Positions 23,101 to 25,652 of a DNA stretch of 64,000 nucleotides are shown here, in pieces. The notes under the pieces were generated by a model that worked only from the letters and a program-made list of their open reading frames with translations, was not told the origin of the DNA and did no database searches. Every line of letters begins with the position of its first letter. The first letter of the stretch is position 1. This DNA is from Lingula anatina (lineage: Eukaryota > Animalia > Brachiopoda). The stretch covers positions 6,324,001 to 6,388,000 of the forward strand of contig CM120645.1 of the NCBI GenBank assembly GCA_051362555.1, in the 5' to 3' direction. A program made the position numbers and the translations under genes.

Positions 23101-25652
23101 TCAAGGTCACAGTTAGATTGCCAGTATATGACTTCCAATTAAAGTTCAATAGTAACTATGGTCATATCTTTGCTAATTTTGGAGTTATTTCACATTTTAT
23201 TTTCACCACTGAAAATTGCGATGTTATACTGTGTAGTTACTGAAAATCGGCACAAATAATTTCTTGCAAATAAAATCCCATTTTTAGAAAATTTTTGGCC
23301 TGTTTGACCTTTAAATAAAGGTCAAATCCAAGGGCATATTTGAAATCTCCACGTATAACATTCGGTCAAACATCTGTAGAAATTGCCCCATAATTCCTTC
23401 GGTTTGGGAGATGTTTAGCATTGAATTTTGCAATTTTTGGCCAATGGTGCATTGAGATGAGTGCCACACCTAGACCCATGCACCGACAAAGCCCAAAATT
23501 TACGTGGAATGCGATGAGATTATGTGTGACCTAAATCCAAGAGATGATACAGGCCCTTGTAGTCTAGGAGGAGAAGCGGTGACGGTGAAATGGCGACGGA
23601 CGAGACGGGTCAGGACTAAAACCAAGTGTACCGCCAGCGACGCGCTGGTGGTACAATGAATGGAGTAAAGTTTTCCTTAGCAGCCCAGTGTTTACTCCAC
23701 ACTTTTTGTTCAAGTCAAATATTCCACACTATTACAAATGTTTTATTTTTTAAAAATTAAGCAATGACATAATTTGCACCTTGGACATAATAACGAATTC
23801 GTTATTATGTCCAAGTTTGCACATACATTTGCAACAATTTCATCAACAAGTCGAGTATTTGAATAGTGAAGTAATCAGACCATTGGAGAGGAGGGATTTA
23901 CAAAAAGCTGTCATATTTTCCTTTTTTATCTTGTTTTCACTACGGCACATGCGTACAGATGCGACAAAACTAGGGGTTCATTAGCAGAAAATCTACCAGG
24001 TTAACCTGACGTACGTATGTTAAAATCTAGGGCGCGCTGCTTCCTGTACAAACTAATGGGGACCGGACTCTACCATGGGTGACTCTCTGTCACATACTTA
24101 CGGATAATACAAGCATTTGACCGGTCAGCGATCCAACCAGTGTCGCACCTTTGACGATATTCTGTGTGTGTGGATGTATAATAAGCTGTTCTCCCGCAAC
24201 TAGAAAACGGACCAACTCAGAAAAATTACTGTTTTAATCCTCAAAGAACTACAATTACCAAGGCCAACTGAAGCTTAGTGTCTAATATTTTTAACCCTTT
24301 AAACTGTTAAATTAGCGTTTGAGTTATAAATATAAAGCAAATACTGACCTACCCAAACCCTTTAAACTGTTTAGCGTTTGAGTTATAAATATAAAACAAA
24401 TACTGACCTACCCCAACCCCAAAACCCACAGCTGGTTGTGTAATATCTAATTCTGACTGTTCTGCCTACCACGGTATACGTGCGCACGTGTCCACTAAAA
24501 CAAATCAAAATGTAAACTAGAAAAGCACTCCGAGAGCGCAGACCTCCGCCAAGGTAGCAATTTTTTTATTATTATTGATTGATCATTGATCCGGATCACT
24601 ACCGAAAACTAATCCTCTGTTCCTTGGCCCACTTCTGAAAGTTCCTGAAAATTTCATCAAAATCGGTCCATAACTTTCTGAGTTATGTTGATGACAGACA
24701 GACAAACAGGGGTGAAAAAATAACCTCCTTGGCGGAGGTAATAAATTGCATAAGGTATTTTCTAGCGTGGAAAAGAAAAAGACTTTGTAATACAGTTTTT
24801 GATAGTATCCTCAATTTACCTGCGTTTTCAAGTCTATCACAATTGTATTTACAATTTCTAATGAAGAATTTCTGGGAAAAAAAGTTATGCGAGTAAAAAT
24901 ACAATTTCGAGAAAGGACTATGATATCATCGGTTGAAATGGATGAAATGTGCCTTTCACGGGTCTTATAAACGGATTATGCGTTTACTAACACTACCTGC
25001 AGATCTTTTAGCACTAACACCCATATTAACCACAAAAACCCACGAATTAACCATACAATTATTTAGCACCAACAAAGCAATACCTAGCACTAACATTCAT
25101 CCGCTCTTGTAGTGCTGGTTAATTTGTGGGTTATGTGGTTAATATGGGCGTTATTGCTAAAAGTTATGCGGGTAGCGTTAGTAAACGCCTAATCAGTTTA
25201 TAAGACCAGTTTCAGAACCAAAACATATCCAAAATGGAAAACAAAGGTCTCATTCTCCAACTAGAAAAGCACTCCGAGAGCGCAAACCTCCGCCAAGGCA
25301 ACAATTTTTTTATTATTTTTGATTATTGATTGATTATTGATCCGGATCACCACCAAAAACTAATTACTTCTAAGTCCATAACTTTTTGAGTTATGTTGAT
25401 GACAGACAAACAAACAGACAGACAAACAGGGGTGAAAACAACCTCCTTGGCGGAGGTAAAAAATCCAATGAACTGTTCCTCTCTTTAAAAGTAATGGAAA
25501 CGCAGGTTTGAAAAATTACGGGATCAAAAAATAATCTTGTTATTATCACTTTCAATATTATTTAAAACTTACGTGTATGTTATTGAAGTTAAGGACGGTA
25601 CGATATATATCGCCAGAATTAGCAGGTATGCCAACTCGTTTCCCACACCCAT
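171..25652 (-). CDS. Gene A: EMI/EGF-domain single-pass receptor tyrosine pseudokinase, exons 1-22 of 24 (3' end off-window)
   Basis: Manually spliced GT-AG exons with consistent phases, 5' to 3': 25573-25652, 24408-24494, 24102-24199, 15738-15833, 15171-15269, 14229-14492, 9150-9279, 7658-7877, 7183-7408, 6898-6936, 6680-6778, 6004-6270, 5593-5710, 4975-5179, 4287-4539, 3819-3905, 3271-3422, 1912-2113, 1462-1581, 1029-1189, 558-662, 171-288. Start codon in GCCGCCATGG context, signal peptide [23 protein letters not shown]. Exon sizes match gene B closely; no stops seen. Confidence 0.88.
3271..3422 (-). CDS. Gene A transmembrane exon
   Basis: [21 protein letters not shown] followed by basic stop-transfer RRRH. 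Confidence 0.9.
5805..5848. repeat. (TA)n microsatellite
   Basis: Pure TA run. Confidence 0.95.
6278..6315. repeat. (AAT)n microsatellite
   Basis: AAT run next to the acceptor of gene A exon 12. Confidence 0.9.
8256..9082 (+). mobile_element. Non-autonomous TIR DNA transposon, CCCAGC-family (CMC/EnSpm-like)
   Basis: Termini CCCAGCGGGCA...TGCCTGCTGGG, many subterminal CAACGTTG-like motifs, internal (TA)n, AGA on both flanks; near-identical copy at 10730-11517. Confidence 0.85.
9650..10060 (+). mobile_element. Degraded Helentron/HINE-like fragment
   Basis: TGACCTTGACCTTTGACC core motif, (GACA)n microsatellite, terminal imperfect GC hairpin followed by an A-run. Confidence 0.45.
10730..11517 (+). 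mobile_element. CCCAGC-family TIR element, second copy
   Basis: CCCAGCAGGTA...TGCCTGCTGGG, collinear with 8256-9082. Confidence 0.85.
11730..12600 (+). mobile_element. Dispersed repeat, possibly Kolobok-like, with possible THAP relic
   Basis: Begins TTAA|AGG; inverted homologue at about 30560-31185; MPRCVAVG start resembles a THAP N-terminus. Confidence 0.55.
13370..13768 (-). mobile_element. Kolobok-like non-autonomous element end
   Basis: Ends CCCT|TTAA; inverted homologue at 26284-26620 continuing at 27535-27600. Confidence 0.6.
15878..17350. repeat. Imperfect inverted repeat (about 110-bp arms) enclosing nested Harbinger-like elements
   Basis: 15878-15990 is the imperfect reverse complement of 17249-17350. 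Confidence 0.6.
16006..17237 (+). mobile_element. PIF/Harbinger-like non-autonomous element with an inverted copy of itself nested at about 16191-16871
   Basis: TA|CCCCCGTCACACT...AGTGTGACGGGGG|TA; both end types recur internally in reverse orientation; GAAT/ATTC-rich interior. Confidence 0.75.
17409..20425. mobile_element. Tc1/mariner(pogo)-like non-autonomous element with TA TSD
   Basis: TA|GGGGAGACCGGGGCTAGTTGG...CCAACTAGCCCCGGTCTCCCC|TA, with subterminal GGGGCAAGTTGGCCCC repeats. Confidence 0.8.
18688..19675. mobile_element. Mutator-like (MULE) non-autonomous element
   Basis: Long imperfect TIRs (about 290 bp) starting AGCACACGAAC; 9-bp TSD AGGGAGGGG at 18679-18687 and 19676-19684. Confidence 0.8.
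20531..22424 (+). mobile_element. CCCAGC-family element containing an inverted partial copy of itself from 21105
   Basis: CCCAGTGGGCA...TGCCTGCTGGG; 21105-21541 is the reverse complement of the right end of the 8256/10730 copies. Confidence 0.75.
21542..22361. mobile_element. TIR element with about 105-bp inverted repeats and 7-bp TSD (superfamily uncertain)
   Basis: TIR GCCTA(A/C)CCAACTACCAGACTCGG...; TGAATAA duplicated at 21535-21541 and 22362-22368; host sequence resumes correctly afterwards. Confidence 0.8.
24102..24494 (-). CDS. Gene A divergent EMI-domain exons 2-3
   Basis: [62 protein letters not shown]; same phases as gene B exons 2-3, 87 and 98 nt. Confidence 0.8.
24516..24742 (+). 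mobile_element. Short pearl/HINE-like element
   Basis: ACTAGAAAAGCACTCCGAGAGCGCAGACCTCCGCCAAGG ... (GACA)n ... ACCTCCTTGGCGGAGGT hairpin; second copy at 25259-25460. Confidence 0.75.
24962..25208. mobile_element. Foldback MITE
   Basis: About 90-bp imperfect TIRs, GGTCTTATAAAC...GTTTATAAGACC. Confidence 0.7.
25259..25460 (+). mobile_element. Short pearl/HINE-like element, second copy
   Basis: Collinear with 24516-24742, with an internal deletion. Confidence 0.75.

Follow-up and report, generated by a model that had tools for sequence, protein, structure and literature searches.

What keeps the body of a receptor alike among gene copies while its outermost domain diverges? The question is raised by three tandem paralogues, A, B and C, on the minus strand of a 64,000-nucleotide (nt) stretch of the Lingula anatina genome (hereafter the window). 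The encoded domain order is signal peptide, a 60-residue tip, two EGF domains, a beta-rich module, a further EGF domain, a second related module, a membrane segment and a tyrosine kinase fold. Gene A begins with an ATG at 25652 and runs off the left end of the window, and gene B extends from 48613 to a stop codon at 32866. Of gene C the window contains exon 10 and those after it, so that exons 1-9, and not just exons 1-3 as a preliminary description of the locus had it, are outside. The gene models of A and B are directly supported by a frame that stays open over 22 exons, by AG/GT at all junctions and by identical phases, and the exons of gene A that had been placed at 24102-25652 were found at these coordinates.

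The variable unit of the family

The tip is encoded on the minus strand by exons 2 and 3, at 24408..24494 (first half, 87 nt) and 24102..24199 (second half, 98 nt) in gene A and at 48164..48250 (first half, 87 nt) and 47840..47934 (second half, six-cysteine form, 95 nt) in gene B. The preceding signal-peptide exon 1 lies at 25573..25652 (80 nt coding) in A and at 48519..48613 (95 nt) in B. Between A and B, 10/29 residues are identical in exon 2 and 11/31 in exon 3 (21/60 together), and exon 1 gives 5/27 in a forced alignment, whereas body identity is 78-97%. EGF1 has 23/32 identical residues, exon 21 has 34/35 and exon 22 has 37/39; earlier hand counts had been right within one residue.

A search with exon 6 retrieved three proteins among 132 candidates, all of them RefSeq models of this brachiopod. 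RefSeq protein P0001 corresponds to gene A: it has the same exon chain 1-2-3-4, all 27 residues of exon 1 (27/27) and the first 152 residues are identical, and 11 differences are found over about 1070 positions, one of them due to the exon 5 boundary used. P0002 and P0003 represent further copies whose N-termini are complete; in P0008 and P0011 the N-terminus is missing. All these proteins are annotation models from another assembly and were compared as protein sequences.

Across A, B, P0002 and P0003, tip identity was 20-31 of 60 residues in all six pairs; the same four copies are 78-91% identical in module 1 and 84-94% in module 2. Since all six tip pairs are 33-52% identical, variability of the tip is family-wide and does not reflect one swap into A. 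The pair of B and P0003 delimits the variable unit most closely: 27/32 residues are identical in the signal peptide and 27/32 in EGF1, but only 31/60 in the tip (29/60 differences; the exons on either side together have 10/64, p=0.0001). The signal-peptide exon of B lies 268 bp from the tip. The five differences in the signal peptide are all single-base changes, and the tip needs at least 39 base changes. Because the shared signal peptide and EGF1 enclose a diverged tip, the variable unit is exons 2-3; a variable cassette had been proposed that also took in the signal peptide, and this part of the proposal does not stand. Exon 1 of A is unalignable with the other three copies (2-6 of 24-27 residues identical).

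Silent sites, introns and upstream DNA

Silent divergence is raised in the tip as well. At identical residues that allow a choice of codon, A and B use the same codon in 10 of 19 cases in the tip versus 625 of 754 in exons 6-22 (Fisher p=0.0026), and an amino-acid-stratified test gave 15.4 same-codon cases expected in the tip against the 10 observed (p=0.004). The maximum-likelihood synonymous divergence (dS) between A and B is 1.7 in the tip (codon model with an invariant and a variable class, A versus B only; profile interval about 0.75-8) and 0.29 in the body (likelihood-ratio test p=0.0004). Codon use and tip dS both agree with the preliminary description, which had claimed that silent sites of the tip, too, are deeply diverged. 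Compared exon by exon, as had also been proposed there, dS is not uniform along the gene: it falls past the tip to 0.75 in exon 4 and 0.57 in exon 5, and is also high in exons 10-11 (0.62). In this one comparison of A with B, the rise in both silent and replacement divergence is local to the tip.

The introns bear on how the body exons stay alike. Intron ends aligned above z=3 in 10 of 42 cases between A and B and in 23 of 24 between B and C, and simulated introns were detected in 21 of 21 cases at distances of 0.3 and 0.45 but only partly at 0.6. Because few A-B ends align though the simulated introns at 0.3-0.45 were all detected, the A-B introns appear for the most part older than the body exons (body dS 0.29), as would be expected under conversion within exons. 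Only 6 of 21 A-B introns are aligned by blastn, so unalignable introns are not special to the tip. Within intron 6, about 630 bp are still ~80% alignable between A and B (12612-13245 versus 44092-44846), possibly a regulatory element or a conversion tract.

Exon length and local identity add to this picture. The proportion of synonymous differences (pS) is 0.37 in exons shorter than 100 nt versus 0.25 in the others (p=0.019); the corresponding contrast between B and C is non-significant (p=0.29). Over exons 17-19 P0003 and P0008 show 0 differences in 158 residues, and over exons 12-16 they show 17 in 310 (p=0.001). To judge from these sequence comparisons, gene conversion of body exons is likely. 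The preliminary description had offered two origins for the tip. Escape from a conversion that homogenises the rest is supported by the raised tip dS, the older-looking introns and the P0003/P0008 patch. A one-off exchange with an old paralogue agrees poorly with four tips that are mutually 33-52% identical, with a best tip tree that has the body topology and with the lack of a donor cassette in the window.

Upstream of gene A, 25752..26131 aligns to 50886-51345 at 76-78%, and non-coding DNA here does remain alignable, as had been claimed. RNA reads piled up on 25875-26135 and 51016-51400 continue into unrelated sequence, which marks the far end of the match as a dispersed repeat; the about 165 bp at 25752-25916 draw no repeat reads. 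What remains of the match may be a conserved promoter, which makes the upstream alignment weak evidence on its own. A perfect 29-nt inverted repeat with a 7-nt loop lies at 25724..25788, about 70 bases 5′ of the ATG of A, and no counterpart is listed upstream of B. The 48 bases around the start of A (25634-25681) match 50896-50943 at 38/48 positions, in non-coding DNA 2.3 kb upstream of coding exon 1 of B, and a second copy of the start sequence lies just upstream in A (25752-25800). Only the proximal copy in A has an ATG, the others having ATA and ATT, and the signal-peptide exon of A may have been recruited from duplicated promoter-side sequence.

The RNA reads came from six distinct runs, out of nine, with the tissue not stated, and the 5′ end of A was surveyed in four runs, at about 6-25% of each. 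Exon 6 of B reached a depth of about 1.3-1.6 in two of four runs (first mate on +), and traces of 0.19 appeared in one run, in bins touching exons 1 and 4 of B. No reads fell on exons 2, 3 and 5 of B in the four runs, and at this low depth no non-coding first exon of B showed near 50900.

Tip domain, receptor body and kinase fold

In A, B, P0002 and P0003 the signal peptide is followed directly by one copy of the tip, as in EMI proteins; the tip has six cysteines in B, P0002 and P0003 and four in A. According to the available part of one source, the EMI domain occurs once per protein, at the mature N-terminus, with three conserved disulfides and six cysteines (PMC11990869). Neither single exons nor whole paralogues, nor the sponge and chiton relatives described below, matched the Pfam EMI entry PF07546, and for this reason we call the tip EMI-like only. 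Atlas gave one lead (0.81) to a cluster with 97% PF07546, a weak hint.

A tip profile of three sequences, searched against 1.84 billion proteins, had six matches: one query member, three repeat proteins and two EGFL7-like proteins, from a sponge (XP_062523106) and a chiton (XP_064613089), with profile E values of 4e-4 and 9e-4 and hhalign 97%. The three repeat proteins (P0013-P0015) lack the cysteine pattern and were dropped as spurious. A word-index search with the tip region of A returned only itself, and the tip profile found none of the solved structures by sequence.

A structural model of the A tip, built from three sequences, predicts a long antiparallel hairpin (strands 4-23/29-48; predicted local distance difference test, pLDDT, 80; predicted template modelling score, pTM, 0.35) with an aromatic turn between the second and third cysteine. 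Residues 45-101 of TGFBIp, which we take to be its EMI-type domain, matched this model weakly (Z 2.2, root-mean-square deviation 2.9, 40 aligned, rank 4 of 8). Foldseek with the tip model gave nothing at E<=0.001, and fold searches returned generic hairpin matches only. In A, the first and fourth cysteine positions are both occupied by Arg, on predicted opposite strands; this joint loss suggests that, if the model is right, one disulfide was lost and structural constraint continues. All four tips are cationic (8-10 R+K versus 1-3 D+E) and rich in Tyr and Trp.

Identities among the paralogous tips overlap those to the sponge and chiton relatives (29-42%), so the variable tip sites are near saturation. 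Among 3479 six-frame segments of the window there was no orphan or spare tip exon; an arrangement of spare tip cassettes spliced to one body was accordingly rejected for this window.

The hydrophobic signal peptide and the single membrane segment were read from the sequence, and the kinase fold matches PF07714 (E 8.5e-60), with FGFR2/3/4 as the nearest solved kinases by sequence. Aligned to EGFR, the receptors directly show the loss of catalytic residues: the alphaC Glu is replaced by K, HRD reads HKR and DFG reads GFG, in all copies that reach these positions. The nonsynonymous divergence (dN) of the kinase is 0.033 versus a dS of 0.245, pointing to a fold held under purifying selection though its catalytic residues are lost. 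Because three catalytic residues are missing yet the sequence is conserved, the domain is likely a catalytically dead scaffold. From copy to copy, tyrosines are retained both at the C-terminus and in an acidic stretch next to the membrane.

Between tip and kinase, all on the minus strand, gene A has exon 4 (EGF1, of intermediate divergence) at 15738..15833, exon 5 (EGF2) at 15171..15269, exons 6-16 (two related modules, beta-rich and Ig/FN3-like, separated by an EGF) at 3819..14492, and exons 17-22 (transmembrane segment, a juxtamembrane part rich in Tyr, and the greater part of the pseudokinase domain) at 171..3422. The donor of exon 5 at 15171 follows the RefSeq protein; the computed comparisons used 15174, three bases earlier, which changes one codon. 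Intron 3 of A is 8.3 kb long, and an alternative donor of exon 2 at 24412 is used by RefSeq isoform X3, which joins exon 2 directly to exon 4. In gene B, exon 4 lies at 46596..46691 and exons 4-24, the receptor body to the stop codon, at 32866..46691; exons 10-22 of gene C lie at 53721..63953, the last two mapped approximately.

Exons 6-9 and 12-15 of A and B encode modules that are 27-35% identical, evidence at the sequence level for an old internal duplication of the ectodomain. The module had no curated Pfam match above cut-off and resembles unnamed mollusc proteins, one cluster of which has fn3 on 38% of members.

Some further observations concern the locus and its RefSeq counterparts. A family of roughly 145-bp tandem repeats occupies different introns of A, B and C (22613-23188, 39826-40879 and 56527-57412), and intron 1 of A holds two copies of one dispersed element (24515-24746 and 25259-25464) that draws many reads from other loci. 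A is 99% identical to its RefSeq protein, and B and C are at most about 91-97% identical to the retrieved long RefSeq copies over long regions, reflecting either haplotypes that differ in copy content or mosaics in the older assembly. P0001 and P0004 are "isoforms" of equal length with scattered substitutions in later exons, which suggests duplicated exon copies in the RefSeq assembly.

Competing explanations and known systems

The explanation we lean towards, and hold to be somewhat more probable than not, is that conversion homogenises the body exons and selection maintains the differences among the tips, so that each copy would have its own binding specificity on a likely dead kinase body. 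Exon-limited conversion and selection on the tip form a working model here, and for selection we infer its action from the contrast between tip and flanking exons in B and P0003.

Several results weigh against this explanation. A dN/dS above 1 was not obtained in the tip, the one-ratio estimate being about 0.3 and that of the variable class about 1.1. The contrast with a conserved signal peptide comes from one pair, B and P0003, with proteins from another assembly, and none of the 10 allelic differences between A and RefSeq falls in the first 120 residues (P=0.31), so that the two versions of A compared have identical tips and give no sign of allelic hypervariability. On the side of conversion, the rank correlation of pS with exon length is non-significant (p=0.12), as is an overall test of mosaicism at 47 informative sites (P=0.11); the identical P0003/P0008 patch could be an assembly or model artefact, and the intron simulation is crude, as synonymous sites could be slower than introns. 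Exons 1-3 of A had zero depth in 4/4 runs, with only repeat-derived reads near, and no splice joint was listed at the 5′ end of B in the four runs.

Were selection left out, the copies would be old, conversion would keep the long, conserved exons young, and the short tip exons, constrained at only ~30% of sites, would have drifted below the similarity that conversion needs. The dN/dS of the variable class, the higher pS in short exons and paralogous tip identities (34-53%) that overlap the sponge and chiton values near a framework floor all fit such a passive escape; the signal-peptide exon shared by B and P0003, however, is equally short and presumably weakly constrained, yet is 27/32 identical, and we regard this course of events as unlikely. 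Were conversion left out instead, the copies would be as young as body dS implies and the tip would have evolved about eight times faster on every branch under positive selection. In agreement with this, the best tip tree has the body topology (78% support) with all five branches stretched 5-9 fold, and A-B tip dN is about 2.3 times body dS. Against it stand the raised silent divergence of the tip (p=0.0004) and the state of most A-B introns, which have diverged far beyond what body dS predicts; we consider positive selection alone quite unlikely.

A single import of exons 1-3 of A, with an old paralogue as the source and unequal crossover or exon shuffling as the route, would account for the unalignable exon 1 of A, its long intron 3 and the raised tip dS, and the tip data do not reject the two other topologies (approximately unbiased test, p 0.13 and 0.26). 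We nevertheless find it very unlikely, since the tip of A is no further from those of B, P0002 and P0003 than these are from one another, the informative sites of the tip split 5:0:2 in favour of the body topology, and the window holds no orphan tip exon. The lack of reads on exons 1-3 of A and the 8.3-kb intron could also mean that the transcript with exon 4 at 15833 does not include the exons at 24102-25652. Given the open frame, the matching phases and the exon sizes nearly equal to those of B, such a model artefact is hardly credible; the same exons are also connected in the RefSeq models built on another assembly, one model running from exon 2 straight to exon 4, and exons of the family generally drew almost no reads.

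Taken by itself, a role of the tip in recognition, assigned by analogy, is put slightly short of an even chance. On the analogy with Draper, the cationic, Tyr/Trp-rich hairpin would bind a foreign or altered-self surface, the receptors would cluster after ligand capture, tyrosines of the juxtamembrane part and the tail would be phosphorylated by another tyrosine kinase, and adaptors would be recruited, with the dead kinase domain as a scaffold. Cell-cell or gamete recognition fits the sequence equally well. The broader proposal of a brachiopod variable-receptor system, in which an EMI-like hairpin, in place of an Ig, lectin or LRR domain, is diversified for recognition on a conversion-homogenised stalk with a dead kinase and haplotypes differ in B/C-type copies, is conceivable but doubtful. 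If true, the scheme would be a new building plan among diversified invertebrate recognition receptors, in a phylum whose immunity is little studied; specificity would be set in a 60-residue, cheaply expressed domain, and one brachiopod would possess a few recognition receptors whose kinase domains are predicted to be dead. In the literature searched, as covered by titles and the beginnings of abstracts, no description turned up of a tandem brachiopod family that combines a variable EMI-like tip with a tyrosine pseudokinase.

Parts of this plan have known counterparts. The receptor tyrosine pseudokinases PTK7, RYK, ROR and EphA10 keep the fold and a conserved sequence and have lost catalytic motifs; they differ in their ectodomain, whereas the present genes form a tandem family with variable tips. 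The EGFL7-like sponge and chiton proteins share a six-cysteine N-terminal domain followed by EGF, but have 157-180 amino acids and lack the modules, the membrane segment and the kinase fold.

The evolutionary pattern, a divergence peak under conversion, is already known. In the available part of the source, exon 5 of the red and green opsins is such a peak in duplicates under gene conversion, with RHD/RHCE and protocadherins also cited (PMC3924837). As in the opsins, a short region of high divergence lies within similar tandem duplicates and is read as a target of selection (PMC3924837). As far as that account goes, however, opsin introns are homogenised and the exon differs, whereas here A-B introns are mostly unalignable, the body exons are homogenised and the peak is a whole 60-residue domain. 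CEACAM32 is described, in the portion available, as having escaped concerted evolution, with conversion in the leader exon and not in the ligand-binding exons (PMC7042247). The similar signal peptides and different tips of B and P0003 resemble this; unlike CEACAM32, with its Ig domains and a whole mature protein that, in the same portion, escapes, only the distal tip does so here, and a kinase-fold tail is present.

A parallel in domain order is offered by the engulfment receptors Draper/CED-1/MEGF10, in which, in the extract available, an N-terminal EMI or EMI-like domain is followed by EGF repeats, a single membrane pass and cytoplasmic tyrosines that could be phosphorylated by another kinase (PMC8092387). 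The tail of Draper is phosphorylated by Src42a after binding of phosphatidylserine or lipoteichoic acid, according to the same extract (PMC8092387). These receptors, unlike those of Lingula anatina, have long EGF/NIM arrays and no kinase domain (PMC8092387), and the extract describes one receptor per species that takes several ligands, where the brachiopod has a family of copies with variable tips.

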